Source: a virus
IMG/VR virus record: IMGVR_UViG_3300004881_000001
Span: 1-64,000 of that record
Length of the DNA stretch: 64,000 nt
Strand: one strand, 5' to 3'
Below the pieces are notes generated by a model. The model had not been told where the DNA came from, did no database searches, and saw nothing but the letters and a program-made list of their open reading frames with translations. Position numbers and translations under genes: made by a program. Positions within the stretch are counted from its first letter, which is position 1. Each line of letters opens with the position of its first letter. Positions 6,630 to 55,878 of this stretch are shown here, piece after piece.

Positions 6630-7181
6630 TTATGTATTTAAAGCTTTAACTTCTTTCATTAAATTTTCTTCATCTTTAGCTAAAATAGTGAAGGATTTCT
6701 TAGCTTCCTCTATAGATTTACCTTTAGCTAAGAAAGCTATTACTTTCTTCCATTCAGGAGTTCCTTGCTTTAGTTGAGGTTTCTTTCCCGTGTTACCTGC
6801 TGATTGATTCCCATCGTCATCCTCTCCTTCAACAATTAAGTTTAAAAAGGCGCACTGTGCGTATCTTTTTTGGTACGTTAAAGATGAGCCTATACCTTGA
6901 GGATCGTTTTTTGAGGGAGTCATTATAAATGATTCCTCAACCCATTGAGAGGATTTAGCGTGAAGTATTCTAGTTGTTAGTCCATTCTCACCTGCTGGAG
7001 CTTGTATAACTATCAATCCATTCTTAACTAGATGAGGTTTTATAGCTTTCTGTATAAACTCTAGTTTAGCGTATTTTGTCTTAAAAAAAGGATTTTTAGA
7101 TTCCTTTACTATAGGCTCTACTTCCTCGCTAAATTTTAACAAAGCTAATCCTAGTTCTGATATTTCTTCTGTTTGTTTCAT
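6630..7181 (-). CDS. erf: ERF-family single-strand annealing recombinase
   Basis: KNPFFKTKYAKLEFIQKAIKPHLVKNGL ... DPQGIGSSLTYQKRYAQCAFLNLIVEGEDDDGN. Start moved to ATG 7181 (MKQTEEIS), 1 nt after the upstream stop; the track start is 7226. Confidence 0.7.
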   Translation of the reverse strand: MKQTEEISELGLALLKFSEEVEPIVKESKNPFFKTKYAKLEFIQKAIKPHLVKNGLIVIQAPAGENGLTTRILHAKSSQWVEESFIMTPSKNDPQGIGSSLTYQKRYAQCAFLNLIVEGEDDDGNQSAGNTGKKPQLKQGTPEWKKVIAFLAKGKSIEEAKKSFTILAKDEENLMKEVKALNT

Positions 7182-7182
7182 A

Positions 7183-7446
7183 CTATTTATTAATTTTAAG
7201 TGTGTCTCCAACTTGGTACTCTTCAAAAGTTACTAATTCCCAACCTCTTCCAGTTGCGTCAGTTATTGCGTACTTAAAAGCCCCATATTTAGACTCAGTA
7301 ATACGTTCAGCTTTGTAAACTACAAGGTTTTGCTTCCCCACCCAGACTTTGTGTGAAGGGTAACTATCACAAGCCATAAATAATACAGTAGCTAAGGTCA
7401 CGTATAAAAAATACTTAATTTTGTTTTTAATTTTAAATGTTTTCAT
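7183..7446 (-). CDS. small lipoprotein (87 aa)
   Basis: Signal peptide with lipobox-like LFMAC|DS. Confidence 0.55.
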   Translation of the reverse strand: MKTFKIKNKIKYFLYVTLATVLFMACDSYPSHKVWVGKQNLVVYKAERITESKYGAFKYAITDATGRGWELVTFEEYQVGDTLKINK

Positions 7447-7555
7447 TTTGTTTTAGTTTTTAAAAGTAGTAGAGGGTGAAGCAGAAACGAATTCTTACTT
7501 CTTAAAGACGTATTCCTTGTTTGCCCGTGTACACTGAGGCTCGCTTACCTCGACT

Positions 7556-7637
7556 CTACTACCAATAACCCTAATTTACATTAAATATATCATAACTCCA
7601 AATAAAATTCATTAAAACGTAATTTTACTCGGTCGTT
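7556..7637 (-). repeat. 82-bp promoter-plus-hairpin repeat, copy R1
   Basis: 80/82 identical (aligned by eye) to 9205..9286. On the minus strand: hairpin TAAAATT-ACGTTTTAATG-AATTTTA (7603..7627), then a TATATTTA -7-like box (7582..7589). Confidence 0.85.
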
Positions 7638-7650
7638 ATAGCCAATTAAA

Positions 7651-7791: not shown

Positions 7792-7918
7792 TATAACAAC
7801 GTATAAAATTAATACGGGTTAAATGCCTAATTTCAGCGAATTACCATTTAATTAAGTTAAAGCAGTACGGATGGTTTTCGCATTCTATTCCCGTACTAAT
7901 CTTATACAAACCGTTAGC
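7792..7918 (-). repeat. long bracketed palindromic element (TATAAC...GTTAGC)
   Basis: tataacaacgtataaaa ... cttatacaaaccgttagc arms; inner hairpin agtacgg/ccgtact (7865..7897); ends 7 nt before the stop of gene 7925..8179. Confidence 0.6.
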
Positions 7919-8620: not shown

Positions 8621-9121
8621 CTAAAAATTAGAATAATGACCTAAAGTATTTTGTGTATTTACTACTGGAATCCTATTGAAAGAATCTAATGCAAAATCAA
8701 CTGTAGTGTCTTTGTTGATAATTACTTCTTTATCACTCGGTTGATCGCTTAAAAGACCTTTTCTACTGTTTTTCCAAGGTAAATCATTATGAGTTAAATC
8801 AACTAAATCTGAACCTGTTAAATGACCATAAGACCTCCATATATCATTTAAATGATTTACAGTTATATCATCCACATCCAAATTCACAGCTCTATTACTT
8901 GGAATAATAGAACTTCTTTTCATAAACTTAAAATTAGCCCAAACATCATAAACCATAGGACCATATATCCAAGCTTGAATTCTGTCGTTAAACAACCTTT
9001 TGTTATTTTTAACAAAAAACCAAAGCTGAGAATAATACAGTAACTTCTGTAATTTCAACGGACTAACACCTTTCTTAATAAAGAAAGAAGAAATATCTAA
9101 TGCTCTATAATTTGTTTTCAT
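8621..9121 (-). CDS. Panacea / DUF4065 (SocA/GepA-like) antitoxin-domain protein
   Basis: VSPLKLQKLLYYSQLWFFV...IQAWIYGPMVYDVW and ...LTHNDLPWKNS match the DUF4065 hallmarks (KLQKLLYY, AW.YGPV, TH...PW). Confidence 0.7.
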   Translation of the reverse strand: MKTNYRALDISSFFIKKGVSPLKLQKLLYYSQLWFFVKNNKRLFNDRIQAWIYGPMVYDVWANFKFMKRSSIIPSNRAVNLDVDDITVNHLNDIWRSYGHLTGSDLVDLTHNDLPWKNSRKGLLSDQPSDKEVIINKDTTVDFALDSFNRIPVVNTQNTLGHYSNF

Positions 9122-9204: not shown

Positions 9205-9286
9205 CTACTGCCAATAACCCTAATTTACATTAAAAATATCATAACTCCAAATAAAATTCATTAAAACGTAATTTTACTCGGTCGTT
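9205..9286 (-). repeat. 82-bp promoter-plus-hairpin repeat, copy R2
   Basis: Direct repeat of 7556..7637 with 2 mismatches; hairpin 9252..9276; -7-like TATTTTTA (9231..9238). Confidence 0.85.
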
Positions 9287-9294
9287 GTAAACAA

Positions 9295-9546
9295 TTAAGT
9301 TGTAGTATTTGCATCACAATCTGTTCGCATGCAACTAAATCCTATGCCTTGTTCTCTTTTTAGCAGTCCACACTTACAACTTAACAGTTCAGCTTCGCTT
9401 TTACAACAATGCGTATAATTAATAGCTTCTTCCATAGCATCTATAAAGGTTTCGTTTGGCACATCATCAAATCTTGCTGTTGGTGCTTTTGCAAAAAACT
9501 TTTGTATGTGTTTATCTAATATTTCATTTAATTTTTTTCTGTCCAT
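9295..9546 (-). CDS. hypothetical Cys-rich protein (83 aa)
   Basis: ORF track; CCKSEAELLSCKCGLLKREQGIGFSCMRTDCD. Confidence 0.5.
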   Translation of the reverse strand: MDRKKLNEILDKHIQKFFAKAPTARFDDVPNETFIDAMEEAINYTHCCKSEAELLSCKCGLLKREQGIGFSCMRTDCDANTTT

Positions 9547-9595
9547 TTTTATTGTTTTAGTTATTATTCTAAGCTACTAATCATACACTTTCAAG

Positions 9596-9811
9596 TTAGC
9601 GGTAATTATTTAAAAACCATCTCCAATGCTCCGCTTTCCATAAGTTGGGATTTTTAATGTCTTCTAATTCTGTTGGTGGGTACTCGTTTTTTGTACTGTT
9701 AAACAGCTTGTTAACGTGATTTTTATGTAAGCAATACCACATATCAGCTTTTTCTAAAGCACTACCGCTAACACCACCTAAATTTAATTTATTCTCTTCG
9801 TTCATAAACAT
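9596..9811 (-). CDS. hypothetical protein (71 aa)
   Basis: ORF track; the stop codon lies inside a GCTAAC motif (CGC TAA CT). Confidence 0.5.
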   Translation of the reverse strand: MFMNEENKLNLGGVSGSALEKADMWYCLHKNHVNKLFNSTKNEYPPTELEDIKNPNLWKAEHWRWFLNNYR

Positions 9812-9839
9812 AATTTTAGCTTAAACGTTAGCAACAAGG

Positions 9840-10199
9840 CTACGTTACTGCCTTTAATTCAGATTCTAGTTCCGAAACTTGCTCCTCTAATTCGTCAATT
9901 CTATTATTTAAGTGTGTTATTTCACTTTCAGCATCAGAAGCCCTTTCCTCTGCATAATCTATTTGCCTACCAGCTTCTTTCCTCATACCCTCATTTGTTT
10001 TTCTAACATCTTCAAAGTTTAGTTCAAAGTCGTTATACATTCGGACAGCGTATTCTTTTACAAATACCTCTTTCGCTTCCCCTTCAAGTAAAGGACAACA
10101 ATCATCTACCATACTTTCAAGATAATTAGCTATATCGTTTTTAAATCTTTCTATACTTCTATCAATGTCAGGGCAAGTATGTCCGTAATCTAATGCCAT
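9840..10199 (-). CDS. hypothetical protein with C-terminal coiled coil (119 aa)
   Basis: ORF track; heptad-like ITHLNNRIDELEEQVSELESELKAV. Confidence 0.55.
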   Translation of the reverse strand: MALDYGHTCPDIDRSIERFKNDIANYLESMVDDCCPLLEGEAKEVFVKEYAVRMYNDFELNFEDVRKTNEGMRKEAGRQIDYAEERASDAESEITHLNNRIDELEEQVSELESELKAVT

Positions 10200-15089: not shown

Positions 15090-17117
15090 TTAATGTTCCC
15101 AACTTTGTCCTATATGGACATCTGTGGTTAGTTTAACCCTACTGTAGAACCTTTCTCCAGCTTTTTCCATACATCTTTTAACTACTGTCCCCAACTCTTT
15201 ACTAAGCTCTTTAGGAGCTTCTAGCATAATCTCGTCATGTATAACGTTAGGCATAAAAACTTTAAAAAGCAAATCTTTTTCTTCTAGATGTTTGAAGATA
15301 TAAATTCCTGCTAGTTTAGTGATATCCGCAGAAGTCCCCTGCACAGGATAATTCAAAGCTTTCCTCTCTATCTGCCCTTTAAAATTAAAATATTTTTTAA
15401 CTAAAGGTTTTAGTTCGTTTTGAAACACTAGGGAGTTTTTCTCTTTATGTTCTCTGTAGTTTTTCCAAAATATATTGTTATTCACCTTAGTCTCTAAATC
15501 CGTAAATTGATGGAAGAAACCTACAAACGATTTCCTCTTTGTAACATCGTTAAATAATACGTACCCATTTTTAAGGGCCTCCTTCTTATTACCTTTCCAA
15601 TACTCTGATAAGCCTGGAAATGCTTTCATATAGGCATTGTAGAACCTTTCCCCTTCTTCCTCGGAAATGTTTAGGTTGGAAGCTACCGTGCTGCCGTTAC
15701 CTCCATAGTTAATAGCAAAACCTCCCATCTTAGCTATTTGTCGTTTGTCCTTGTGGTTTTTCTTAATCTCCTTAAGGTCTTCTCCCAGTTCAGGCCATAT
15801 CTTAGAAGCGTTAAAGCTATGCATATCTCCTAAACCGTTATCGTAAAACTCTAGTAAATCTTTATCCATAGATTGGTTAGCTAAAACTACTTGTTCCTGA
15901 CCAGAATAATCCGCTACTAGAAATTCATACCCCTCTTCTGGGATAAAGCAGTCTCTTTCGTATATTTTACCTTCTTCCCGATCTTCTGGGGTTGACGGTA
16001 TATTTTGAAAATTTATATATTCCTCCCCAGTAATTCTATTTTTACCCCCAGAAGAGAGCCTACCTGTATCCATTATTTGTGTGAAGTTTGTATGTATTCT
16101 TTCTGATACCTCACTAACCCCGTTTAAAAAGCTTTGTCCGTAAGTACTCACTACTTTTTCAGCAGCTTTGTACCTTAAATAGATCCCTACCGACTCGGAT
16201 TTTTCTTTTTGAGGCCTTAACACACTAGCGTCTACTGAGTTCTTTTCTATCCCCGTTTTCCTATCTAAAACGGTAGTGTTAACCCCTACTGTCTTAAAAA
16301 ACTGAGCAGCTTGTTTAGGGGACCCCCAGTTTATATTGCACTTAGCTCCCGTAGAAAATAAATCCATTTGACTTTCTATAAACCTAGTCATTTTATTATC
16401 TATAACCCAAGCATTTAATTCCTCCTCTAGTTTTTGCATATCAGCTAAGTTACTAGCCATCTTCTCTTTCCACTTGTACTGGTCTAACTTAAAACCAGAG
16501 TACTCTATATATGCTAAAACTTTTACATATAAATTATCCAGTTTAAGGGCTGATTCTAAATTTAAATTCTCGATTTGCGGAAGTTGCTTTTCCCTGATAG
16601 CCTGTAGATAGGCTACATCCTTAGCCGCGTATTTTATAACCTCTCTTGTAAGACCTAGTTTATGTATATCGTGACGAATACTTTTATCCATAGAAATTCC
16701 TAAGTACTTTTGGGTAAGAGCATTTAGTCCTTTTTTAGCTAGTTTGTCTCCCGTATGGAGAACACACTCCGCTAAGTAGGTATCGTAAATATTTGCGGGT
16801 ACTAGTCTTTTGTGGTAAAGGAACTTTAAATCAAACTTAGCGTGTTGCATTAAAAACACTTTTGACTTATCCGTAAACAAAGATTCAAACTTTTCTATAG
16901 GAACCGTTAAAGTATCCACCACAAATTGATTCTCTTTATCTCCAAACTGAGCTGATATAATTCTACAAGTGTAAGGATCAAACCCCTCAGTCTCTGTGTC
17001 AAAATCTATAAGATCGATATTTTTAAAGTAATCTAATAATTGAGTAGGGGTAGCTAACTTAATATCGTCGCCTAGCTCTTCCCATAGTTTTGTTTGATTT
17101 GTGACTAAATACACCAT
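15090..17117 (-). CDS. family A DNA polymerase with 3'-5' exonuclease domain
   Basis: Exo I DFDTETEG, Exo III YAAKDVAYL, Pol motif A LVADYSGQEQVVLA, motif B RQIAKMGGFAINYG, motif C VIHDEIMLE. Confidence 0.9.
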   Translation of the reverse strand: MVYLVTNQTKLWEELGDDIKLATPTQLLDYFKNIDLIDFDTETEGFDPYTCRIISAQFGDKENQFVVDTLTVPIEKFESLFTDKSKVFLMQHAKFDLKFLYHKRLVPANIYDTYLAECVLHTGDKLAKKGLNALTQKYLGISMDKSIRHDIHKLGLTREVIKYAAKDVAYLQAIREKQLPQIENLNLESALKLDNLYVKVLAYIEYSGFKLDQYKWKEKMASNLADMQKLEEELNAWVIDNKMTRFIESQMDLFSTGAKCNINWGSPKQAAQFFKTVGVNTTVLDRKTGIEKNSVDASVLRPQKEKSESVGIYLRYKAAEKVVSTYGQSFLNGVSEVSERIHTNFTQIMDTGRLSSGGKNRITGEEYINFQNIPSTPEDREEGKIYERDCFIPEEGYEFLVADYSGQEQVVLANQSMDKDLLEFYDNGLGDMHSFNASKIWPELGEDLKEIKKNHKDKRQIAKMGGFAINYGGNGSTVASNLNISEEEGERFYNAYMKAFPGLSEYWKGNKKEALKNGYVLFNDVTKRKSFVGFFHQFTDLETKVNNNIFWKNYREHKEKNSLVFQNELKPLVKKYFNFKGQIERKALNYPVQGTSADITKLAGIYIFKHLEEKDLLFKVFMPNVIHDEIMLEAPKELSKELGTVVKRCMEKAGERFYSRVKLTTDVHIGQSWEH

Positions 17118-21542: not shown

Positions 21543-21983
21543 TTATTCATATAAAATATGAAATAATTCATAAGGGTCGTCTCCCCTGTCTGAGAACACC
21601 TTCCAAATTAAATTTATATCTAATTTAATCCGATCGTTATGCTCGAAGATTATGAATTTAAACTCATTTCCAATAATTTTAAGAACTATATAGTTATTTA
21701 CGTTAGTTTTTAACTTCACTAATTTACCGTATTCCCTATCTGGGTCATATAGATAGAGTCCTAACCCGTCCTTACAATATTTCCAACCTACGGATACGGG
21801 ACAGCCTAAGTCCCTAACTACTATTTTATTTAAATCTCCAAAATCGTTGTGGTTACAGTAGGAAGTGTCGTCTAATTTAAGTGAGTCAAAATACACCGCA
21901 AACACATAAGTATTAATTGAGTCTGTTTGGGCTACTACAAGCGATGTAATAGCTAAAAATATTATTGTTATTATCTTCTTCAT
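21543..21983 (-). CDS. secreted protein (146 aa); paralog family with 28961..29494
   Basis: Signal peptide MKKIITIIFLAITSLVVAQ; shared YC.D.L.LYLY and PY.LF.L blocks. Confidence 0.55.
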   Translation of the reverse strand: MKKIITIIFLAITSLVVAQTDSINTYVFAVYFDSLKLDDTSYCNHNDFGDLNKIVVRDLGCPVSVGWKYCKDGLGLYLYDPDREYGKLVKLKTNVNNYIVLKIIGNEFKFIIFEHNDRIKLDINLIWKVFSDRGDDPYELFHILYE

Positions 21984-21987
21984 AATT

Positions 21988-22054
21988 CTAATTTACATTA
22001 AATATATCATAACTCCAAATAAAATTCATTAAAACAGAATTTTACTCGGTCGTT
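21988..22054 (-). repeat. promoter-plus-hairpin repeat, copy R3 (67 nt)
   Basis: 65/67 identical to 7571..7637; hairpin 22020..22044; -7-like TATATTTA (21999..22006), 15 nt upstream of ATG 21983. Confidence 0.8.
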
Positions 22055-22064
22055 AGCATTAATA

Positions 22065-22712
22065 CTAACCCCACTGGTTGGCAATAGCTTCTGCCATACC
22101 TTTAAATGTTTTACTTCTTAATGTTCTTAAATGTTCTTTGCTTGTTGCTTGGGCTAAACATTCATAAATCCAAGTAGCTTGTCTTTTAGTTTTACCAGTT
22201 TTTTTATCTACCCACTCTTTAAATTCTCCCTTTTCAACCACATTTGTATGCTTTAATTTTGGTAAGTTCTTTAACCATAAACAAGTAGCTTTACTCGCTT
22301 TGTCGCCAAAATGATAAGGATGTACTATTTGGTCAGGTTTTCTTATTTGGCTACTAATTACGCTCACAGGGTTTTCAATAGCTATTTTTTCTATTGGTAC
22401 ATCCATTAATTTTCTAACAAAATCAAGTGCATCTTCTTGGTTTTTCTTTCTAACCTCATTTATTACTTTATTGCCATTTTCGTCTTTCTTATACATAGCC
22501 CAAGCACCTGCTACACTTAAATATGTACAAGGTGGGTGTGCTATCATCATATCCCAACCTTTATCTATCACTTCAAAAACATCTTGTTGGTAATGCCATT
22601 CAGGATGTCCTCCGCTACAAGGTAATAAATCACAACTGTATGCTTCGTGTCCTAATTTTCTAAATTCTTTTGTTATTGCTTGGCTCTCTTCACAAGCTAC
22701 TAATATTCTCAT
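22065..22712 (-). CDS. C5-cytosine DNA methyltransferase-like protein (putative)
   Basis: Motif IV-like HPPCTYLS (PC dipeptide), motif VI-like IENPVS (ENV-like), C-terminal FKGMAEAIANQW. No canonical FxGxG SAM loop (ILVACEESQ instead). Confidence 0.4.
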   Translation of the reverse strand: MRILVACEESQAITKEFRKLGHEAYSCDLLPCSGGHPEWHYQQDVFEVIDKGWDMMIAHPPCTYLSVAGAWAMYKKDENGNKVINEVRKKNQEDALDFVRKLMDVPIEKIAIENPVSVISSQIRKPDQIVHPYHFGDKASKATCLWLKNLPKLKHTNVVEKGEFKEWVDKKTGKTKRQATWIYECLAQATSKEHLRTLRSKTFKGMAEAIANQWG

Positions 22713-22747: not shown

Positions 22748-22797
22748 GCTAACAACGTATAAAGTGCATTAAAACGCACCATACACAATGCGTTAGC
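22748..22797 (-). repeat. 50-nt GCTAAC...GTTAGC bracketed palindromic element with conserved-loop hairpin
   Basis: gctaacaacgtataaa-GTGC-attaaaac-GCAC-catacacaatgc-gttagc; lies between the stop of 22803..22958 and the start of 22065..22712. Confidence 0.75.
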
Positions 22798-22802
22798 AAC
22801 AA

Positions 22803-22958
22803 TTACTCGCTGTTTAAGTAATCATCAACTACCCCCTCTTCTACTTCTTTGTCAAGGTTTCCATACAGCCCCCCTGCGAAAGCAAGTAACAGTTCCCTTT
22901 GGTTGCTAACATTGACTAAATCAAATTCTTCGTTACAATCTTTACAATACCAACTCAT
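22803..22958 (-). CDS. small ORF (51 aa), own call
   Basis: Own translation: MSWYCKDCNEEFDLVNVSNQRELLLAFAGGLYGNLDKEVEEGVVDDYLNSE; stop followed 5 nt later by GCTAAC. Confidence 0.35.
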   Translation of the reverse strand: MSWYCKDCNEEFDLVNVSNQRELLLAFAGGLYGNLDKEVEEGVVDDYLNSE

Positions 22959-30730: not shown

Positions 30731-31659
30731 TGTCTTATGATTTTAATTGTTTTACTTGTCCCATCACTATATCTTACAATATATGGTTGTGTTTGTGTGT
30801 GGTATTGTGATTTACTAATCTTTTGTCCTGATAAATTCCATCTACCAATTTCTCTTTTCTGTACAACAACATTTTTAATTGACATAATATCAAAGTATTC
30901 ATACTGACCGTCAAAATCAACTTGCTTTATTCTATAGTAATTAATCCCTGCTCCATAGCTGTTATCTTCAGCTCTATAGGTTATCTCTGTAGTTGTGTTA
31001 CCGCTCCCATCAACTGTAGCGATGGTTGACCAGTTAAAGCCGTCTGTAGATCGTTCTATTAAGAAATAATCGTTATTAATCTCAGAAGCTGTGGTCCATT
31101 CCACAATATTAGTGTTATTTTCGTTATACACATTCATATCTAACATTTCTACAGGTAAAATTCCTGAGCAACTGATGTGTACTGATGTTATATCATAAAA
31201 ATAGAGAAAGTTACCAATAGAATTATTGAATCTACTGGTTTCCATTCTAAACCTAAGCCTTGTGGCTGAATTAGGGATCGTCTCAAAAGAATAAAAATTA
31301 TTTTGTCTACCTGTATATGTCCCTACAACATTCCAAGAACCAGAATCGTAATACTCAAAATAAACAAAGTCTCTATTACGCTCTATAAGCCCGTATAATT
31401 CAAAAGATATAGATAGACCCTCAACACATGTGGATAAGTCTAGCACGGGGCTGGTAATAAGTATAGTGGATGAATTAGGGTAAGGAGTATTACCCACATT
31501 AAAAGTGCCGTAATTCTCACCCCCTCCATAGTTCTGTATTCCTGCTCCGTTGGTGAAAGCCCAAGTTGTACCTGGGTCGAACTCCTCATTAATTGGAAAT
31601 TGACCGAATGTCGTTATCGCTATTAAAACGATTGTTAGTGTTGTGATTAGTTTTTTCAT
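30727..31659 (-). CDS. secreted protein with T9SS-like C-terminal sorting domain
   Basis: Signal peptide MKKLITTLTIVLIAITTFGQ; middle block NIVEWTTASEINNDYFLIERSTDGFNWSTI...YYRIKQVDFDGQYEY; C-terminus ...NLSGQKIS...PYIVRYSDGTSKTIKIIRQ resembles the type A Por/T9SS CTD. Confidence 0.6.
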   Translation of the reverse strand: MKKLITTLTIVLIAITTFGQFPINEEFDPGTTWAFTNGAGIQNYGGGENYGTFNVGNTPYPNSSTILITSPVLDLSTCVEGLSISFELYGLIERNRDFVYFEYYDSGSWNVVGTYTGRQNNFYSFETIPNSATRLRFRMETSRFNNSIGNFLYFYDITSVHISCSGILPVEMLDMNVYNENNTNIVEWTTASEINNDYFLIERSTDGFNWSTIATVDGSGNTTTEITYRAEDNSYGAGINYYRIKQVDFDGQYEYFDIMSIKNVVVQKREIGRWNLSGQKISKSQYHTQTQPYIVRYSDGTSKTIKIIRQ

Positions 31660-31701
31660 GGTTTGTTTTTTATTTGAGTATACGTGTTGAGTTTATAAAA
31701 G

Positions 31702-31753
31702 GTTACAACGCAACCTAAAATTCATTAAAACGTAATTTTAGGTTGTTGTTAGC
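31702..31753 (-). repeat. bracketed palindromic element with 11-bp stem and conserved loop
   Basis: aacctaaaatt-cattaaaacgt-aattttaggtt (31712..31744), outer ggttacaacg / gttgttagc; GTTAGC overlaps stop codon 31753..31755. Confidence 0.75.
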
Positions 31754-31950
31754 TACAATAAACTATCTATAACAATGTCAAGTATCTTTTTACTTGCTTT
31801 GTAATCATTCCACGCTTTTAGTACTTCGGGTTTTTCTTTTTCAAGAATAGGCATGAGTCTTTCAAAAGTACTTAACCTTTCTAAATCTTCTTTTGCTTGC
31901 CAAAAATATTTTAAGTCGTTTAAGTCTTGTTCTGTTAATTTATTTTCCAT
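31753..31950 (-). CDS. hypothetical protein (65 aa)
   Basis: ORF track; cassette-like. Confidence 0.5.
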   Translation of the reverse strand: MENKLTEQDLNDLKYFWQAKEDLERLSTFERLMPILEKEKPEVLKAWNDYKASKKILDIVIDSLL

Positions 31951-31986
31951 TTTATTTAATTTTAGTTTATTAATCCGCTTACAGTA

Positions 31987-32037
31987 GCTAACAATGTGTG
32001 TAGCACATTAAAACGATGCCATACACAAACCGTTACC
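31987..32037 (-). repeat. bracketed palindromic element (GCTAAC...GTTACC), homolog of 22748..22797
   Basis: gctaacaatg-TGTGTA-GCA-cattaaaacga-TGC-ca-TACACA-aaccgttacc. Confidence 0.7.
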
Positions 32038-32040
32038 CAC

Positions 32041-32080
32041 AATAAAATTCATTAAAACAGAATTTTACTCGGTCGTTAGC
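32041..32080 (-). repeat. partial promoter-plus-hairpin repeat, copy R4 (hairpin half only)
   Basis: aataaaattcattaaaacagaattttactcggtcgttagc; identical over 37 nt to the matching part of copy R3 (22018..22054); lacks the -7 box part. Confidence 0.75.
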
Positions 32081-32291
32081 GTTCATTTGCCAACGCTTCT
32101 TGTTTTCTAATAATTAGCTTTGCTTCCATCCTTTGAGCGTCAAACCTAATATCATCTATTAAGTATATTGCATCAACTACATTTCCTTTCTTTATTAAAT
32201 CTGTAAGCAAATCTAATTTTCCGCAAATCAACTCATCTCTTGGCGTATCTATTGTTTTAGGCATTTTATTGGTTTTATTGTCAACGCACAT
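32076..32291 (-). CDS. hypothetical protein (71 aa)
   Basis: ORF track; the stop TAA is embedded in GCTAAC (CGC TAA CG). Confidence 0.5.
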   Translation of the reverse strand: MCVDNKTNKMPKTIDTPRDELICGKLDLLTDLIKKGNVVDAIYLIDDIRFDAQRMEAKLIIRKQEALANER

Positions 32292-32299
32292 AAACGAAC

Positions 32300-32350
32300 G
32301 CTAACAAAATTTAAAATTCATTAAAACGAAATTTTACTTTCGGCATTAGC
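32300..32350 (-). repeat. bracketed palindromic element (GCTAAC...ATTAGC) with conserved-loop hairpin
   Basis: Hairpin taaaatt-cattaaaacga-aatttta (32312..32336). Confidence 0.7.
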
Positions 32351-32351
32351 A

Positions 32352-32570
32352 TTAATTAGTCTCGTACTTTAAAACTATCTCAATGCTTTTAACGTCCATC
32401 ATTGTTTTTTCTTTGTCTCTAATATAAGAAGGCAGGGTGTAACTTATCCATTTTAAATCTTCCTGTAAATCGTGTTCTTTTATACCAGAAGAACTACCTG
32501 TACTTTCCATTTTAGTACTGTCATTAAACGTCACCACTATTTTATTTCGTTGTTCGTAATTCATAATCAA
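32352..32570 (-). CDS. hypothetical protein (72 aa)
   Basis: ORF track; cassette-like. Confidence 0.5.
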   Translation of the reverse strand: MIMNYEQRNKIVVTFNDSTKMESTGSSSGIKEHDLQEDLKWISYTLPSYIRDKEKTMMDVKSIEIVLKYETN

Positions 32571-32575
32571 CTAAT

Positions 32576-32665
32576 GCTAACACAGGCTATAAATAAAAGC
32601 CTATTAAGTTTTGTAATAAAATTGAACATTTTTACTTGGCTTCAATTCATAGCCAAACCGTTATA
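32576..32665 (-). repeat. degenerate long bracketed element (GCTAAC...GTTATA)
   Basis: Contains hairpin aggct-ataaataaa-agcct and a decayed aaaat-tgaac-atttt hairpin. Confidence 0.45.
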
Positions 32666-32666
32666 T

Positions 32667-32912
32667 TTAATACTCAATTTCTTTCTTATCTATAACGTAC
32701 TTTTTAAATTCGTCAGCGGTTAAATAGTGCTTTAATACATCATCAAAGTGGCTCATATCACTGCGTGCATTTACGTCAGAGTTTCTAATTCTAATAAGTG
32801 CATTAACTACAATTCTATCTTCTTCATCTCTTGGTATTTTAACAAGCACACGCATACTTCTTTCTATTTCTCTAACATTATCTAAAACCGCTTCGTGCAT
32901 TTTCATATCCAT
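32667..32912 (-). CDS. hypothetical protein (81 aa)
   Basis: ORF track; cassette-like. Confidence 0.5.
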   Translation of the reverse strand: MDMKMHEAVLDNVREIERSMRVLVKIPRDEEDRIVVNALIRIRNSDVNARSDMSHFDDVLKHYLTADEFKKYVIDKKEIEY

Positions 32913-32943
32913 AATATTCTGTTTTTATTAACCCGTACTAAAA

Positions 32944-33005
32944 TATAACAATGTATAAAATACACCCTACGGGTCACTGCGTTGCATCTTATACTAAACG
33001 TTAGT
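32944..33005 (-). repeat. degenerate bracketed element (TATAAC...GTTAGT)
   Basis: tataacaatgtataaaa ... cttatactaaacgttagt, same arm pattern as 7792..7918. Confidence 0.45.
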
Positions 33006-33255
33006 AAACTAAATCATATATCTATGTTAATTACTTCACTTTGTTTATTTATTTAATGTTAACTGCTTGAATTTAAAGTCCCTATAGTTTGTTATTTTTC
33101 ACAAGAGCTTAATAAATTTGTATATTGATCTTGGATTGTTAATATAGTACTCTACAGTCTCGTTAATAATTTCTATTTCTGTTAGTTGTTTAAGTGTTTG
33201 CATCTCTTTTTTTTCTTTTCTGTTTTTTGGGCCCCCTAGGTCATTCTCCCAGATT

Positions 33256-34640: not shown

Positions 34641-34960
34641 ATTTGAACAACTTTATTTACCATATCCATACCATAAAGTAAATTATACAACCACCAAACA
34701 AATAACAATGTAATACAATTAACCACTTTCCCATTTTCCCCACAAACAAGAGCGAGAGCTGACGCATAAGCCCTCAACATAGCCGATAGATACCACCACC
34801 CCATATACACATACAATACATAAGATGTAATCAAAGGATCATCAAGCTCAACAACCCAACTTCAAATCCCTAATCCCAATTTCCTTTTGCACGGGGGGTA
34901 TGACCCCTCAATAATTAAAAGGGGGGGAGTTGTATAGGTGGTCTCCACTCTCACTTTCTC

Positions 34961-35016
34961 ACAAAAAATTTAAAAATCCCCACTTCCCCAAAAAATTTTA
35001 AAAAAATTAAAAAACG
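34961..35016. repeat. phased A-tracts (bent-DNA signature)
   Basis: A5-7 runs begin at 34963, 34972, 34990, 35000 and 35009 (spacing 9, 18, 10, 9). Confidence 0.6.
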
Positions 35017-35056
35017 TCAATAAATAAAACAACTGGCAATAATTGGATTAAGAGTC

Positions 35057-35120
35057 TGTCCCAACTATACGATATATACGGGACAAAAAATGTCCACTAA
35101 ATCCCATAATAAACTGGACA
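35057..35120. promoter_or_regulatory. four TGTCC/GGACA half-sites (operator- or iteron-like)
   Basis: TGTCCC 35057..35062, GGGACA 35080..35085, TGTCCA 35091..35096, TGGACA 35115..35120, alternating in orientation. Confidence 0.45.
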
Positions 35121-35196
35121 CTCTTCATTCTATAACCTTTACAGTATAACTCTACCAGAATATGCACCTACTAACTAAAATCTTTATAGGTAAATA

Positions 35197-35228
35197 CTTG
35201 CCTACTAGAAAGAAAAGTTGTATATTTG
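35197..35228 (+). promoter_or_regulatory. rightward early promoter
   Basis: CTTG-N20-TATATTTG; the ATG is 3 nt after the -7 box. Confidence 0.55.
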
Positions 35229-37174: not shown

Positions 37175-37215
37175 TTCTCACCTTAGACTATGTTCTCAAA
37201 AAATGTGTTAAATAA

Positions 37216-37247
37216 TTTGGAATTGTCATTTATTATGATTATCTTTA
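37216..37247 (+). promoter_or_regulatory. class A promoter (copy 4)
   Basis: TTTGGAATTGTCA-N-TATCTTTA with 20-nt spacer; no convincing ORF for about 800 nt downstream. Confidence 0.6.
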
Positions 37248-37547
37248 CTTTATAATTCCTTGTTAGTTCAAGGTTCTCTTCTCATAAGAACAGGGCAGCA
37301 CTTATAACACCTAAAAAAGTTGGACGTTATTTGGATCAGGTACATATGAAATATCAAAACTTTAGAAGATGCGGATGAAGGTTCTAGTTTTGTTCTGAGA
37401 GAAATTCCAGTTGTTTTTTGTGGCTGACACGATTGAAAATCAAAAATTAATAATTTTCCAAAGCTTTTTAAGTTTTGGACGGGCTGGAGAGGAGAGATTT
37501 TCAAATAGGATTGTATGAATTTTACTTAAAGAAGATTTATATAAGTT

Positions 37548-41008: not shown

Positions 41009-41320
41009 ATGGAAGTGGACAAATTGCCAGTACCTTACTGGGACAACGTAGTAATTAAGAATCCTTTGTCGGGAGAGTTTATGGAGAAGTTTGAAGACGA
41101 ACTTTCTTTAATTCCTGAGAAGGACAGGGAAGAATACAAAAGAGAACATCTACAAGGGGTTTGGGATAATATAGAGATCCTTTCTGTAGGTCCAGATTGT
41201 TCTGCGGCTAAAAAAGGAGACGTAGTGATTATAAAGAACGCAAACCCTAATAAATGGACGTTTGTTTCTGAGGAGAAGTACATAATGTTAAGCGAAAGAG
41301 ATTTTATTGGAAGATGGTAA
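41009..41320 (+). CDS. GroES-like co-chaperonin (putative)
   Basis: 103 aa; N-terminal VPYWDNVVIK and SVGPDCSAAKKGDVVIIK ... IMLSERDFIG resemble GroES P..DRVLVK / AVG.G....VKVGD.V.F / L.L.E.DIL; its 3' end overlaps the chaperonin gene. Confidence 0.5.
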   Translation: MEVDKLPVPYWDNVVIKNPLSGEFMEKFEDELSLIPEKDREEYKREHLQGVWDNIEILSVGPDCSAAKKGDVVIIKNANPNKWTFVSEEKYIMLSERDFIGRW

Positions 41321-42789
41321 ACTTACAGGGAGAGTACACGGAAGTTTTTATTGGAGAGAAAGTGAAGGAAGGTCTTTTAAAGGGCTGTCAAACTATTATA
41401 GATGTAGTAGGCACTACTTACGGACCTTTGGGGAACAACGTAGCTATAACAAAGTGGCTAAACACTCCTCACGTAACTAAAGACGGGGTAACTACTTTAG
41501 CTGATTTAAGAGCTAAGGATCCTATAGAGAACGTAGCAATTGAGATTATTAAGCAAGCAGCTAAAGCTACCGCTGAATTAGCAGGAGACGGGACAACTAC
41601 AACTTCTTTATTAACAGCTTTGTTAGTTAAGAATTGTATGGATCTATCTCTATCTGCTGGAGAGCTTAGTAGAGAGTTAGCTAGTATTTGTGAGAGTTTT
41701 ATATCTCAAGTAGACGCTATAACTAAGAAGGTGGCCACTAAAGAAGATTTGATTAATGTAGCTACAATATCCTCTAACGGAGATGAGCAGTTAGCGGCAT
41801 TGGTTATCGAGGCTTATGAGATGGTAGGAGAAGATGGAGTAGTATCTGTTAAGAACTCTAAGGAGTATAAGACCTACATAGAAACTACTGAAGGTATTAG
41901 ACTTGAAGTTTCTAACATAGTTCCTGAACTAAGGAATCAAGACGGAACTTCTTCTCTCTATGAAAACCCTAAAGTGTTAGTAACTAATCTAGATATTAAG
42001 GGTAGAGAAGACGCTATAAAGTTAGTAACATTAGCGGGAAGTCTAGAGAGTCCTTTAGTAATAGTAGCTAATGATATGGATAAAGGGGCTTCTGAAGTTA
42101 TAGCTTATAACAAGTACACCCAAAGTATTCCTATAGACGTTATACGTGCGCCAGGGATCTCTCAGGCTAGGCAAGACGCTTTTAAAGACATTGCAGTAGC
42201 TACGGGAGCAACTTTGCTTGATAAAGCTACAGGTTGGAGTATATCAGGTTTAAATGAGAAGTTACTAGGGGAGGCAGACTCTATTGAGATAAAATCTCAG
42301 GAGACTATTATTTTAGGCCATAAAGGAGATATTTCTGAAAGGCTTAAATATTACCAAACAAAGATAGAGCAAGATAAAGACGGCCTAGCTCCTAATTATA
42401 AAAAAAGATTAGCTATGTTGACGGGAGGGTCTGCTATTATTTATGTAGGAGGGTCTAATGAGGTTGATGTTATGGAGAAGAAGGATAGGTTAGACGACAC
42501 TGTTAGAGCTACCTATGCGGCTATTAACGGAGGTGTAGTACCTGCGGGAGGGTTGACCTTAGATTCTTTGGCTATCTCAGGTGACGATGTTGAAGCGGTT
42601 GTTTTGTGCGCTATCGAAGATCTTTTAAGCTTGTTGTTTAAAGGATCTGCTGAGGAAATAATTACTAATGTGGAGGAAAAAGGTTTAGTAGACCCCGCGA
42701 TGGTTTTAAAAACCTCAATTAAAAACGCTTTCTCCGCAGCTAATATGATATTAACCACTAAGACTGTGGTAGCAAAAATAGACAAATAA
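41314..42789 (+). CDS. groEL: GroEL-like chaperonin (Cpn60 family, 491 aa)
   Basis: VVGTTYGPLGNNVAI...TPHVTKDGVTTLADL...DPIENVAIEIIKQAAKATAELAGDGTTTTSLLTA aligns with GroEL TLGPKGRNVVL..P.ITKDGVSVA...FENMGAQMVKEVASK..D.AGDGTTTATVLA. Confidence 0.85.
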   Translation: MVNLQGEYTEVFIGEKVKEGLLKGCQTIIDVVGTTYGPLGNNVAITKWLNTPHVTKDGVTTLADLRAKDPIENVAIEIIKQAAKATAELAGDGTTTTSLLTALLVKNCMDLSLSAGELSRELASICESFISQVDAITKKVATKEDLINVATISSNGDEQLAALVIEAYEMVGEDGVVSVKNSKEYKTYIETTEGIRLEVSNIVPELRNQDGTSSLYENPKVLVTNLDIKGREDAIKLVTLAGSLESPLVIVANDMDKGASEVIAYNKYTQSIPIDVIRAPGISQARQDAFKDIAVATGATLLDKATGWSISGLNEKLLGEADSIEIKSQETIILGHKGDISERLKYYQTKIEQDKDGLAPNYKKRLAMLTGGSAIIYVGGSNEVDVMEKKDRLDDTVRATYAAINGGVVPAGGLTLDSLAISGDDVEAVVLCAIEDLLSLLFKGSAEEIITNVEEKGLVDPAMVLKTSIKNAFSAANMILTTKTVVAKIDK

Positions 42790-52723: not shown

Positions 52724-54205
52724 ATGGCAACAGGAAGAATATCACCATTACAGATGACAGATGCTACCCAATGGAAAGGTTTAACGACTGAGAACCACCT
52801 TGGGGCTATCTGGGAAGCGGCTCCTAATAAAGTCTCTGATATGATTATGACTGTTCAACAGAATTACTTCGGTAATAATATTGACAGCGTTTTAAATCAG
52901 TTTCCAGTATTAGAAATGAAAGACGACGCATCTTTTACTTGGGATCTCCAATCACAAGGATTAGATAACATACCTCTAGTTGAAGCTCGTATAGACGGGA
53001 CTGCTGTAGTTCCTACAGATCAACCAGGGAAGAATCACACTACTTTTGAATTAGTTTTCGGAAAAAATTGGTTTTCTGATACGGAACGGATAGTAGGTGA
53101 GCAGAATGAAACTTATCCAATAATTATTATTGAGGAACCTAAACAAGAAGGTGTAAATTGGGTATACACTTGCCAAATGGATACAGGCGATGCTAATATG
53201 TTTATCCCTTACGATGAGCTTTTAGGCGGGAAAGTGTTTTCTGGGGAATACTCTCCAGTAGAAAGAACTCTTTCTAGGAAAGGTAGACAGCTTAGATATA
53301 AGTCTAAAATCACGATGAGAAATGATTTCTCTCAAATCCGTATTGAGAAGAAAACCCCAGGTAACCTATCTGGTAAAAAAATGGGTAGTTATTTTAAAGA
53401 TGCTGAAGGAAACATTGTTAAATTCTGGCAAGCTTACGAATCTTTTATGTTTGATAATGCTTTTAGAGAGGATATCAACAAACTATTAATGTTTGGAACT
53501 TCTAATAGAAGTGCAGATGGTACTTATAAAATTGCAGGTAAATCTAAATATAAGATTCAAGAAGGTGCAGGTATTAGACAACAAATGGAGTCTGCTAACT
53601 CTTCTTTCTACAACACTTTTGACATTAATGAATTAGCAAAACGTCTTTTAGATTTATCTGAAGGGAAGTTAGGTTACGATGAGAGAGAGTTTGTACTTAG
53701 AACAGGAGAGCGTGGGGCTTATGAGTTCCATAAGGCTTTAGAGAAGTATTCTCAATTATTTACTCCTTTGGAGGATAATTCTAGAATGTACAAAACTTCT
53801 AAAGGAATCAGCCAAATGGAGTACGGTTATGGAGGTCAGTTTGTAGAGTATAAAGGCCCTAATAACATTAAAGTTTGTTTATCTATTGATTCTATGTATG
53901 ATGACAGAGAGCGTAATAAACTAGTTCACCCTAACGGTGGGGTAGTTGAGTCTTATAGGTACGATATCATGGATATTGGTACTACAGACGGTGCGCCTAA
54001 TATCCAAAAAGTTAAAGTTGCGGGACAGCCTATTATTCACAAGTATATAAAAGGGATGAGAAATCCTTATAGCCCTGACGGAGAGTTTTCTTCGGTAGGT
54101 ACTGCTGAGGATGCTTGGGAAGAGCATAAGATGTACTGTGGAGCGGCTATCGTAAGAGACCCTTCTAGAACAGCTTCTTTTATTCATAATATGCAAGCAC
54201 ATTAA
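52724..54205 (+). CDS. major capsid protein candidate (493 aa)
   Basis: Position after the scaffold-like gene; followed by the strongest intrinsic terminator in the window. Confidence 0.5.
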   Translation: MATGRISPLQMTDATQWKGLTTENHLGAIWEAAPNKVSDMIMTVQQNYFGNNIDSVLNQFPVLEMKDDASFTWDLQSQGLDNIPLVEARIDGTAVVPTDQPGKNHTTFELVFGKNWFSDTERIVGEQNETYPIIIIEEPKQEGVNWVYTCQMDTGDANMFIPYDELLGGKVFSGEYSPVERTLSRKGRQLRYKSKITMRNDFSQIRIEKKTPGNLSGKKMGSYFKDAEGNIVKFWQAYESFMFDNAFREDINKLLMFGTSNRSADGTYKIAGKSKYKIQEGAGIRQQMESANSSFYNTFDINELAKRLLDLSEGKLGYDEREFVLRTGERGAYEFHKALEKYSQLFTPLEDNSRMYKTSKGISQMEYGYGGQFVEYKGPNNIKVCLSIDSMYDDRERNKLVHPNGGVVESYRYDIMDIGTTDGAPNIQKVKVAGQPIIHKYIKGMRNPYSPDGEFSSVGTAEDAWEEHKMYCGAAIVRDPSRTASFIHNMQAH

Positions 54206-54220
54206 ACAATAGTAATAACA

Positions 54221-54248
54221 GGGGGGGATATCTCTCCCCCTTATTTTT
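54221..54248 (+). terminator. strong intrinsic terminator
   Basis: GGGGGGGA-TATC-TCTCCCCC (8 bp, one G-U pair) followed by TTATTTTT. Confidence 0.75.
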
Positions 54249-54269
54249 AAATTTATAAATTAAACAAAA

Positions 54270-55136
54270 ATGGAACAGGGAGTAGAAGTTAGTACATTTG
54301 AAATACCTAAAGGAAATATAATTATTAAACCCGTGATGCGGATGAGAAACCCTCAAATATCCGACCCAAGTCATGAGGCTTATTTTCTTTTTTCAGGATC
54401 TACAATAGATTACTGTTTACCTATGGACAAAATGGGTAATTTATATAACCCTTTTAGCTCTACACAGGAGAAAGAGTGGTTAGAAAAGGAACTAGATTTG
54501 GATTTAAACTACCATAAAAATAAAGATAATTATTGGAAAAAAGCTAAAGTTAAGTTAGGAAAAGAAGACACTAAGCTTGATTTATCTAATCCTAAGCATT
54601 ACATCCAATATTTAATATTGAAAGCTAATAAAAACTTTATTGCGCCTTCAGGAGATAAAATGCTTGATAGAGCTACTTATAGGTACGCAATAGTTAGTGA
54701 GCAATTTGAAACTAGAGTTAAGGTTAGCTCTGCGGATAAAAAGAAGAGAGCTTATAAATCCGCAGCTAAGTTAGAAGCTAAAGGTAAACAAGCTATGTTG
54801 GATTTCCTAAGAGTTTACGGAAATAAAGTAGATGATGGAAGCTCTTTAGACTTCTTAATTGGAAAGATTGATGATATTATAGAGGATAATATAGATAAGT
54901 TTTTGGCGATCACCGTAGACTCTGAGAACTATGAAATTAAGCTTTTAATAGCTAAAGCGGTAGATGCAGGAGCTGTAGTTAAACGAGGTAGGGAATACAC
55001 TCTTCCAGGAGGCGACACTCTTTGTGAGCAAGGAGATGTATCAACATTAGATAATGTGGTTGAGTACTTAAAAGCTACTAGAAATCAAGATATATTAACA
55101 TTACTCAAAGCTAGAGTAGATAAAGCAGGAGAATAG
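54270..55136 (+). CDS. hypothetical virion-module protein (288 aa)
   Basis: ORF track. Confidence 0.6.
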   Translation: MEQGVEVSTFEIPKGNIIIKPVMRMRNPQISDPSHEAYFLFSGSTIDYCLPMDKMGNLYNPFSSTQEKEWLEKELDLDLNYHKNKDNYWKKAKVKLGKEDTKLDLSNPKHYIQYLILKANKNFIAPSGDKMLDRATYRYAIVSEQFETRVKVSSADKKKRAYKSAAKLEAKGKQAMLDFLRVYGNKVDDGSSLDFLIGKIDDIIEDNIDKFLAITVDSENYEIKLLIAKAVDAGAVVKRGREYTLPGGDTLCEQGDVSTLDNVVEYLKATRNQDILTLLKARVDKAGE

Positions 55137-55141
55137 TATAT

Positions 55142-55849: not shown

Positions 55850-55878
55850 TTTAAGTTTAATTTTAAACAACATTAAAA

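Follow-up and report, generated by a model that had tools for sequence, protein, structure and literature searches.

How single genes pass between unrelated phages is poorly understood outside the T4-type group, and phages gain anti-defence and other accessory genes very quickly. The 64,000-nt stretch of viral DNA analysed here, which we call the window, raises this question on its minus strand, where small genes are separated by imperfect palindromes. A first reading of the letters without database searches (the sequence-only reading) likened these palindromes to the attC sites of integrons and their genes to cassettes, with homologous exchange of the kind proposed for T4-type phages as the conservative alternative. 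Are the palindromes recombination sites, RNA signals, terminators or mobile elements, and do genes move at them?

The window phage and its genes

The window has a G+C content of ~33% and is part of a crAss-like phage, as identified by Pfam matches. A Crassvirus major capsid protein is encoded at 52724..54205 (E 3e-136), and a tail ring protein and an auxiliary capsid protein were also matched. Structural genes occupy the plus-strand arm (35.2-64 kb), and replication and accessory genes occupy the minus-strand arm (1-34.8 kb). Pfam matches in the minus-strand arm include an ERF annealing protein, a 5'-3' exonuclease, a Toprim primase, a DnaB-like helicase, a family A polymerase, a ligase and a lysozyme. 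The ERF-family single-strand annealing protein (6630..7226, minus strand; PF04404, E 1e-24) adjoins the first island of palindromes and is a candidate catalyst of short-homology exchange.

In agreement with the sequence-only reading, which had seen no recombinase, we found no integrase, resolvase or HUH domain in the ORFs of at least 250 amino acids within the 64-kb window of the 91.8-kb source contig. A search of IMG/VR with the ERF protein for close relatives of the window phage gave no match. The protein database returned the source contig itself (P0001, 91.8 kb), and the next-best matches had at most 55% identity over at most two-thirds of the protein. Because the window phage has no close relative in these searches, the cassette behaviour described below was established for the family of elements as a whole and not for the particular copies in the window.

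Twelve full and two half copies of one element in the window

The window contains 12 full and two half copies of one element, all of them on the minus (coding) strand, all intergenic, and held in three islands. On folding, each full copy forms a single long hairpin closed by TAAC and GTTA, and this includes every other copy that the sequence-only reading had listed. On the coding strand eight of the full copies are short, one is mid-sized (33005..32944) and three are long. A covariance model (CM R1) was built from family copies and run on the window and then on both sets of loci described below. In the window it detected eight copies with E-values of 1e-10 to 1e-14 and a further one at 32941..33006 (E 1e-5), all on the minus strand; it thus recovered every short copy plus one outside its training set.

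The archetype at 22748..22797 (minus strand; CM 53 bits, E 2e-10) has exactly the sequence claimed for it, GCTAACG...CGTTTTAATG loop...TTGTTAGC, and folds as a hairpin at -20.5 kcal/mol in the sense direction versus -10.3 antisense (z = -4.5 versus shuffles). It lies 5 nt past the stop of 22803..22958 and 35 nt ahead of the ATG of a DNA methyltransferase-like gene (22065..22712, minus strand; phrog_757). Three other short copies belong to a repeat unit, D3, in which the hairpin is followed by a conserved 3' tail. Copy 1 is at 7556..7649 (hairpin 7592..7641; 64.1 bits). Copy 2, at 9205..9298 (hairpin 9241..9290; 62.5 bits), sits between the stop of 9295..9546 and the downstream Panacea-domain gene. 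Copy 3, at 21973..22058 (hairpin 22009..22057; 58.5 bits), comes after the stop of the methyltransferase-like gene and has TATATTTA in its tail; within the window only the three D3 copies carry a TATATTTA. All three units are on the minus strand.

The remaining short copies, also on the minus strand, lie close together. The element at 31987..32037 (57.9 bits) has the same CGTTTTAATG loop as the archetype. Its neighbour at 32040..32080 has its 3' outer arm cut off by the next element and is matched in its inner part only (32.9 bits); its TAA, within CGC TAA CG, is the stop codon of 32076..32291. The element at 32300..32350 (GCTAATG...GTTAGC; 66.9 bits) begins 1 nt past the stop of 32352..32570, and that at 31702..31753 (56.8 bits) is right behind the TAG stop of 31753..31950, with a 3' arm that runs into the repeat GTAACCTTT...ACGTATA (family D7).

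The mid-sized element, 32944..33005 (minus strand; 35 bits, E 1e-5, outside the training set), has the same frame, ACTAACG...ATTGTTATA, around a different apical hairpin; it opens the 32.9 kb island and is followed by TAGTACGGGTTAATAA. The three long copies, again on the minus strand, have a common frame with large apical inserts. These are 7792..7918 (GCTAACGGTTTGTATAAG...TTTTATACGTTGTTATA; -33.3 kcal/mol sense versus -24.4 antisense), which has a close analogue in locus L019, 8194..8322, in which the insert is branched, and 32576..32665 (TATAACGG...TGTGTTAGC). Finally, two minus-strand half-elements have no 3' arm. At 9573..9600 the 5' arm is fused to a ATTAGTAGC motif and its TAA is the stop of 9596..9811, an arrangement also found in Polaribacter phage P12002S and in locus L104. 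The other, 9812..9832 (GCTAACGTTTAAGC...), is 7 nt past the stop of 9840..10199.

The sequence-only reading had defined the elements by the brackets GCTAAC and GTTAGC. These are present at the archetype but fail as a defining feature. Exact pairs delimit elements only twice (22797..22748, one element; 32080..31987, two adjacent ones), and a third exact pair, 9832..9767, extends into coding sequence. Since the bare hexamer GCTAAC is not enriched (37 matches versus 27 expected), we regard it as the local spelling of a broader frame. By comparison with an expectation of 1.5, GTTTTAATG occurs eight times on the minus strand, always between genes. The claimed link to stop codons was borne out: GCTAA(C/T) is found from -5 to +16 nt of the stop in nine of ~74 minus-strand ORFs, versus ~1.1 expected and a maximum of 6 in 5000 randomisations. 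This count comprises seven ORFs in the range -4..+16 together with 9596 and 32076 (offset -5), which were added by reading the sequence.

A widespread hairpin family

The element belongs to a family that is widespread in phages of Flavobacteriia-type hosts and was previously uncatalogued. Its members are defined by AATTG-N4-TAACG, a covarying hairpin that usually has a C-GTTTTAAT-G loop, and TGTTA. The covariance search that had been proposed for collecting all copies recovered the short copies of the window and the mid-sized one and, with the pattern scans, placed the family in more than 110 IMG/VR contigs as well as in the cultured Polaribacter phages P12002L and P12002S and the Cellulophaga phage phi12:1. 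An exact-pattern scan of IMG/VR for the inner stem and loop gave 24 loci, all of which have the TAAC(G)...(T)GTTA outer frame around differing middle stems, and a looser pattern added 87 loci with quite different inner stems. CM R1 gave 43 matches (E up to 0.01) in the first of these sets and 114 (E up to 0.001) in the second, and as many as nine copies in one locus. In locus L058 eight copies are found among ~35 ORFans. P12002L carries six copies by the covariance model, which flank every DNA methyltransferase gene and a Mom-like gene, and the model also found copies in P12002S and phi12:1.

A logo of 135 copies is conserved at AATTG (positions -9..-5), TAACG, the loop and TGTTA. T is found at -7 in 91% of copies, and there is no pairing between the AATTG block and the 3' flank. 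Little or no variation is seen in TAACG, the closing C-G pair, the GUUUUAAU loop and UGUUA.

Non-crAss siphoviruses also carry the element, and the crAss-like phage phi14:2 gave no match to the covariance model over its first 60 kb; on these two grounds we rejected a link to the crAss-type virion RNA polymerase. Among the genomes of 185,579 bacterial and archaeal species the strict pattern had only four true matches, all on Flavobacteriales or Bacteroidales MAG contigs. This distribution indicates that the family is phage-borne and patchy across unrelated phage lineages. Rfam 15 gave no match at gathering thresholds over the whole window, and only chance-level ones (E at least 0.1) in 31600..33100. 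BLAST of the element consensus against cultured phages found P12002L only, a search too insensitive for a hairpin family of this kind. In the literature we found no description of the hairpin family as such, and a search on the loop sequence returned unrelated primers only.

Inverted-repeat termini, many copies per genome and copies that supply stop codons are also what a self-spreading miniature transposable element of the MITE, REP or PATE type would show. We consider this explanation extremely improbable. Copies differ by compensated stem changes and not by random decay, target-site duplications are absent, no HUH or DDE transposase was found, and presence/absence always covers a gene together with its element; near-absence from the cellular genomes also argues against it. 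Similar to REPs, the elements are imperfect palindromes past stop codons in which a short motif is conserved at the 5' foot and G·T pairs are tolerated. However, REPs reside in the host chromosome in high copy number and have a Y1 HUH (RAYT) transposase as partner, whereas the hairpin family is phage-borne and rare in bacterial genomes, and no HUH family is among the recurrent neighbours of the elements at 119 loci.

Selection on the coding-strand hairpin

The hairpin is under selection, and it is selected on the coding strand. For 31 copies aligned with MAFFT, 85.6% of cells pair in a 19-pair structure versus 36-45% when the pairing is slid, and double changes occur in 12 pairs. In 114 further copies 89.4% of cells pair versus 34-57% slid, a figure that is somewhat favourable because these copies were fitted to the model, and compensatory changes are found in 15 of the 19 pairs. 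For example, pair 24-94 is GC in 32 copies, UA in 24, CG in 20 and AU in 9 with none broken, and several pairs use four Watson-Crick types among the 114 copies without any broken cell. In 78 of 83 informative cases the G of TAACG lies opposite the U of UGUUA. Unpaired bases are more numerous in the 5' arm than in the 3' arm, by 2-3, and some copies have a different or enlarged apex, as in CGTT[hairpin]AATG.

Wobble pairs are one-sided: G·U outnumbers A·C by 41:2 in the inner helix and by 78:0 at the TAACG/TGTTA base. With RNA parameters 131 of 140 elements are more stable as the sense strand (-15.5 versus -11.2 kcal/mol), and with DNA parameters the coding strand folds better in 113 of 131. 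Taken together with the co-orientation of elements and genes, the wobble bias and sense-strand stability point to folding of the transcript or of coding-strand single-stranded DNA, and argue against a symmetric double-stranded site. This strand asymmetry suggests an RNA-level function for the hairpin, probably exerted by way of the invariant loop and base. Replication might also use the coding strand as the lagging-strand template, in which case it could fold as single-stranded DNA.

Other structural readings of the element were tried and rejected. A longer lower stem, in which AATTG pairs with the downstream T-rich block, showed covariation in no more than one pair. A mini-ORF starting at the AUG of the loop is not conserved, and the covariation pattern is RNA-like. 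Mimicry of the tRNA-Lys anticodon loop, mimicry of a CRISPR repeat and a sigma-54 -24 box (TGGCACGG) were each without consistent support.

Position relative to genes and cargo

A same-strand ORF lies upstream of 115 of 151 elements and downstream of 105 of 151. Of 120 elements that have an ORF upstream, 40 supply its stop codon with the TAA of TAAC; stop positions peak again at +7 and +9, where a TAA or TAG lies inside the AATTG block or just ahead of it. On the other side, the next ATG is a median of 30 nt beyond the element, with an A-rich leader between them.

The elements head small accessory genes, namely methyltransferases, a Panacea-domain protein and ORFans. In the window the flanked genes encode the methyltransferase-like protein, the SocA/Panacea-domain protein (8621..9121, minus strand) and ORFans. 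Over the family the commonest neighbour is a DNA methyltransferase with a DPPY motif (43 ORFs in 30 loci); in 18 cases this gene comes directly after an element and in 8 ahead of one. In loci L115 (49% amino-acid identity) and L083 (41%), homologues of the methyltransferase-like gene of the window each have a family hairpin upstream; the stems of these hairpins differ but are compensated, and the motif after the hairpin is unchanged. Additionally, some copies have no co-directional upstream gene, including P12002L 15190..15243 and the window copy at 33005. Hairpins kept ahead of diverged homologues, and copies without a co-directional gene upstream, indicate that the hairpin belongs with the gene that follows it.

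The position of many hairpins just past stop codons, together with T-richness at +4..+8 after GTTA, would suit ordinary intrinsic terminators behind small genes, but several observations make this very unlikely. A terminator scan of the window gave no site at any element. The stems are AT-rich without an abutting U-run, and the conservation of loop and base among unrelated phages is not something a terminator requires. The loci L001, L104, L045 and L046 have a canonical GC-rich terminator directly after the element. The hairpin often begins at the stop codon, where the terminating ribosome would melt the stem, and copies such as P12002L 15190..15243 have no co-directional gene upstream to terminate.

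Two further candidates were rejected. A Bacteroidetes promoter with its start site at TAACG would have its ATTG box at the right distance, but there is no -33 element and an AATGA variant is common. A small RNA gene composed of the hairpin and a terminator does not fit, with a terminator within 90 nt in only 2 of 135 elements.

Junctions of gene exchange at the 5' edge of the element

Comparison of close relatives revealed that accessory genes are exchanged between related phages at the conserved 5' edge of the element. In five sets of closely related phages, ~10 junctions of insertion, deletion or replacement are no further than ~15 nt from TAACG. Loci L010, L006 and L024 differ by nested indels of 389 and 725 bp in otherwise 99-100% identical sequence; the crossovers are in TAACGA and TAGTATTG. 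Between L049 and L069 the gene between two copies has been deleted, leaving a 57-nt overlap. In L001, L104, L045 and L046 a common upstream gene ending ...GGAATAAC(G) is followed by three unrelated cassettes, and three unrelated cassettes end ...CC|TAACGTTGAAAT ahead of common downstream sequence, with the break at CC|TAACG.

The isolates P12002L and P12002S share a backbone of 99% identity and differ at four sets of junctions, at TAAC(G) or no more than 15 nt away. One has an additional methyltransferase cassette, inserted exactly at TAACG, whose homologue occupies another position in the other phage. CAACG| and TAAC| are the break points of two replacements, and a further break lies within the 5' arm, 10-15 nt in. 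Not all indels in pairs of related contigs are at detected elements, L049/L111 and L086/L087 being exceptions.

The crossovers fall in TAGTATTG, TAACG or TGTAT, so that the break point varies over ~27 nt, and none of the mapped junctions is at the 3' edge. Because the junctions are near TAACG, the hairpin stays with the downstream gene, and exchange at this conserved edge makes the moving unit 'hairpin + gene + next TAACG', reaching from just past one TAACG to the following one. The cassette-like layout noted from the sequence was supported, with co-oriented small genes, stop codons overlapped or closely followed by elements, and elements at the junctions where genes are present or absent, replaced or permuted in relatives. 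In family-carrying phages other than that of the window, the elements are conserved between relatives and breakpoints do fall inside them.

A break point that varies over ~27 nt is most simply read as homology-guided exchange in the 5' block. Approximately 7 of 10 junctions are nevertheless on the 5-nt TAACG rather than on the longer identical loop block. This concentration could mean a site-specific cut and could equally reflect selection against chimeric hairpins.

The strand evidence and the junctions bear differently on the suggestion that the hairpin is purely an RNA element (a processing site, stabiliser, attenuator or protein-binding hairpin) and that its coincidence with junctions is incidental. 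Covariation with a sense-strand bias, co-orientation of elements with genes, and retention of the hairpin ahead of diverged homologous genes all favour it, and the coincidence could arise because viable recombinants must break between genes. However, the junctions cluster in one 27-nt zone at the 5' edge and are not distributed across the 100-150 nt spacers, and unrelated cassettes are joined by identical edges. We therefore consider an RNA function with no part in exchange to be unlikely. A possible parallel for transcript-level action is found in T7-type phages, where RNase III processing hairpins lie between the early genes. Similar to the present family, these are repeated related hairpins with internal loops between co-transcribed genes, and they act on the transcript strand, as the family hairpins would. 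To our knowledge the T7 sites have no conserved apical loop and are not known as gene-exchange junctions.

Comparison with attC sites

The likeness to attC that the sequence-only reading noted is real in outline. Both are imperfect palindromes of 50-130 nt with ..TAAC / GTTA.. closure, placed between co-oriented small ORFs. Attention has already been drawn to attC-like 'CALINs' in virulent phages (2023 paper, PMC9892861), with which the family also has in common an occasional stop codon inside the site and methyltransferase genes as common cargo. One of the six phage sites in that study, P12002L_attC1, was predicted by HattCI only and was the sole one without verified IntI1 recombinants (PMC9892861); its primer sequence is identical to the element at L120 30005..30059. 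Thus at least one 'attC/CALIN' call in the literature is to be corrected, since the site belongs to the hairpin family and behaves unlike attC.

At the level of sequence, the attC cores RYYYAAC and GTTRRRY are reproduced only in part. The family logo of 135 copies conserves only TAAC and GTTA, 4 of 7 nt in each core; the cores call for Y at position -1, which is A in 53% of copies, and for R directly after GTTA, where 54% have T. In the window, GCTAAC/GTTAGC agrees with the cores at 5 of 7 positions. The structural signs differ as well: attC folds as its bottom (antisense) strand with extrahelical bases, whereas the family folds best as the coding strand. Folding both strands, as had been suggested for detecting bottom-strand features, gave the opposite result, with the coding strand more stable and, if the sense strand is taken as the attC 'bottom', the extra unpaired bases on the wrong (5') arm. 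In attC, crossover is at G|TT in the 3' core and the site is behind its own ORF; family junctions are at the 5' TAACG, and the hairpin consequently goes with the downstream ORF and not the upstream one. Finally, the loop of the family is conserved, there is no attI, and no integrase was found in the window ORFs of at least 250 amino acids. With the stable strand being the coding one, crossovers at the 5' edge, no integrase found in these ORFs and a tested member that failed with IntI1, membership of the family among attC sites is not supported.

Is the element then a structure-specific recombination site of another kind? In such a scheme, coding-strand single-stranded DNA would fold and a phage or host enzyme would cut at TAA|CG at the 5' foot and exchange cassettes. 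We consider this unlikely. In its favour are the attC-like layout (a TAAC/GTTA-closed 50-130 nt imperfect palindrome with a variable apex and an asymmetric internal loop), the majority of mapped junctions being on TAAC(G), and the patchy distribution over unrelated phage lineages. IntI cuts the folded strand at AA|C in the 5' foot, and the position of the junctions is the same. The HattCI call of one family member as attC (PMC9892861) also counts in its favour. Against it, tyrosine, serine and HUH enzymes are absent from the large ORFs of the window, and no recombinase family recurs beside the elements among 119 loci. The spread of junctions over ~27 nt, the invariant loop, for which attC has no counterpart, the lack of IntI1 recombinants for P12002L_attC1, and extra unpaired bases on the 5' arm, the mirror image of the attC bottom strand, argue in the same direction. 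A bolder proposal appears quite improbable: a mirror-image analogue of the integron in virulent phages, in which the coding-strand hairpin, either as single-stranded DNA or read through its loop, would direct a cut at TAA|CG and unrelated phages would trade 'hairpin + gene'.

PeSL modules and a proposed mechanism

In T4-type phages, PeSLs (promoter-early stem-loop) are composite modules of promoter and stem-loop that flank ORFans (Arbiol et al. 2010, PMC2839356; Comeau et al. 2014, PMC4122927). Recombination between PeSLs explains indels and yields mini-circles (PMC2839356, PMC4122927). The hairpin family is similar in being a repeated intergenic stem-loop module among small non-essential genes or ORFans, usually just upstream of the gene it accompanies. 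Additionally, in both cases the indel or replacement crossovers of close relatives are inside the module, at slightly varying points, and no dedicated recombinase appears to be involved. There is no sequence relationship between the two, the hosts of the hairpin family are Bacteroidota, and a recognisable host promoter is absent from the family. Indeed, the Bacteroidetes motif TAnnTTTG was found in 5 of 131 downstream flanks, and no -33 TTG is enriched upstream. The family therefore lacks the promoter half of a PeSL, with no canonical promoter inside the element or behind it. The hairpin family is also distinguished by its AT-rich stem, its invariant loop and base, and covariation kept across unrelated phage families. 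Terminator and promoter activity and the formation of mini-circles have been shown for PeSLs. By analogy, the PeSL module is the best fit as closest counterpart of the element, as a portable structured joint for swaps of accessory genes, and the homologous, PeSL-like exchange offered earlier as the conservative alternative best fits the evidence.

The interpretation we favour, with about an even chance of being correct, is that the elements are a conserved intergenic joint for accessory-gene exchange in phages of Flavobacteriia-type hosts, in which exchange is guided by homology and the hairpin acts at the RNA level. At its 5' edge the joint has AATTG-N4-TAACG, with TAA often terminating the upstream gene. 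Its middle is a hairpin of ~20 bp with two small internal loops and an invariant C-GUUUUAAU-G apex, for which a different or enlarged one is sometimes substituted, and its 3' edge is UGUUA, then ~30 nt of A-rich leader and the next start codon. In the transcript, the hairpin may be a portable signal that governs expression of the cassette behind it, through processing, stability or translation for example, and the invariant loop and base may be read by a factor common to the hosts or to the phages. Exchange would be guided by homology during co-infection, through phage annealing and repair proteins such as ERF and a FEN-like exonuclease. A dedicated integrase would be unnecessary, in the mode proposed for PeSL modules of T4-type phages.

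The family provides a sequence-defined joint, AATTG-N4-TAA|CG plus hairpin, which crAss-like, Polaribacter and Cellulophaga phages have in common and on which natural exchanges can be located at the nucleotide level. It can serve annotation by pointing to accessory-gene cassettes, above all those of orphan methyltransferases, in viromes of Bacteroidota from the sea and elsewhere. A specific partner that binds the invariant loop and base is predicted, and its identity would reveal a new layer of expression control in hosts without Shine-Dalgarno-driven initiation. Cultured systems with the element are available in P12002L/S and phi12:1. As a separate observation on the sequence beyond the hairpin, the motifs TAGTACGGAT and GGCACTTTTAA recur downstream of elements.

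Motifs flanking the family elements

We compared the flanks of about 130 family elements, the covarying hairpins that lie between small phage genes, taken from the loci and the window. Two recurrent motifs were found at +5 to +15 after GTTA, each in ∼28% of copies, and they are mutually exclusive. The first is (T/C)AG(T/C)ACGGAT(T), in some copies reading TGGCACGG, which resembles a sigma-54 -24 box. The second motif is GGCACTTTTAA(AAA). On the other side of the element, the upstream block TTTAAT(T)G (-12 to -5) and the apical loop TTTTAATG are almost one word, and in some loci (L006, L098) this block lies within a mini-hairpin of its own, GCTTTCGTTTTAATGAAGC, immediately 5′ of TAACG. Because the block matches the loop so closely and is in places presented in a mini-hairpin, a single word may be read twice at each joint.

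Additionally, a terminator of the canonical G+C-rich type (GGGTAGTTATTAGCTACCC followed by T6) lies 10 nt behind an element in locus L001 (2540..2584, minus strand), and likewise in L104, L045 and L046. The presence of such a terminator just behind the element suggests that the element is not by itself an efficient terminator.

Elements in gene arrays and at probably transferred genes

The densest array that we observed is L058 (1..12942, IMG/VR), in which eight elements are scattered among about 35 co-oriented ORFan genes of 55–180 amino acids, none with homologues among the other loci.

Two methyltransferase genes, gp36 of Polaribacter phage P12002L (L120 30078..30848) and gp6 (L122 1899..2702) of phi12:1, an unrelated Cellulophaga phage, share about 90% DNA identity over a stretch that extends from the start codon almost to the stop. 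A family hairpin precedes each gene, and the two hairpins are much less alike than the genes themselves. Closely similar genes behind such divergent hairpins point to a recent transfer, as judged from these sequences, between phages of different host genera.

P12002L also carries P12002L_attC2, an attC call that is recombined by IntI1 (PMC9892861). Its sequence is an exact 68-nt repeat present in two copies (L120 29172..29239 and 37198..37265), one of which forms a junction relative to the close relative P12002S. On the gene-sense strand, P12002L_attC2 starts with AATTG-N4-TAAC, the edge of the family elements, yet it does not contain their hairpin.

Identity and non-coding features of the window phage

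The phage of the window is crAss-like as indicated by its predicted capsid and tail ring proteins: the region 52724..57087 contains a match to the Crassvirus major capsid protein (E 3e-136), and tail ring protein 3/4 and an auxiliary capsid protein are also encoded there. The gene at 41314..42789 specifies a chaperonin of the Cpn60/GroEL type, and that at 59197..60078 a protein with collagen repeats.

Four further repeat families occupy its intergenic DNA. Three fit the Bacteroidetes promoter pattern TTTG-N19-20-TAnnTTTA: D5 (18122, 20491, 25188 and 34604), D6 (36976, 37198 and 45882) and D12 (21507 and 28282). The fourth, D7 (GTAACCTTTAACAAAC..ACGTATA; 31670, 34004 and 34422), is found close to the divergent region and could represent a separate promoter class, possibly early.

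This divergent region, 420 nt of non-coding DNA between the two arms (34805..35225), contains G-runs and C-runs and has strong predicted structure. Since it is close to the cumulative GC skew minimum at about 36 kb, we consider it a candidate replication origin. A second non-coding stretch, of ∼100 nt (7460..7560, minus strand), immediately follows the element at 7592..7641 and has a long-range closing stem, GGTAGTAGAG...CTCTACTAC, with several hairpins inside. No Rfam family matches this stretch, which may correspond to a small RNA or else to a structured leader for 7183..7446.
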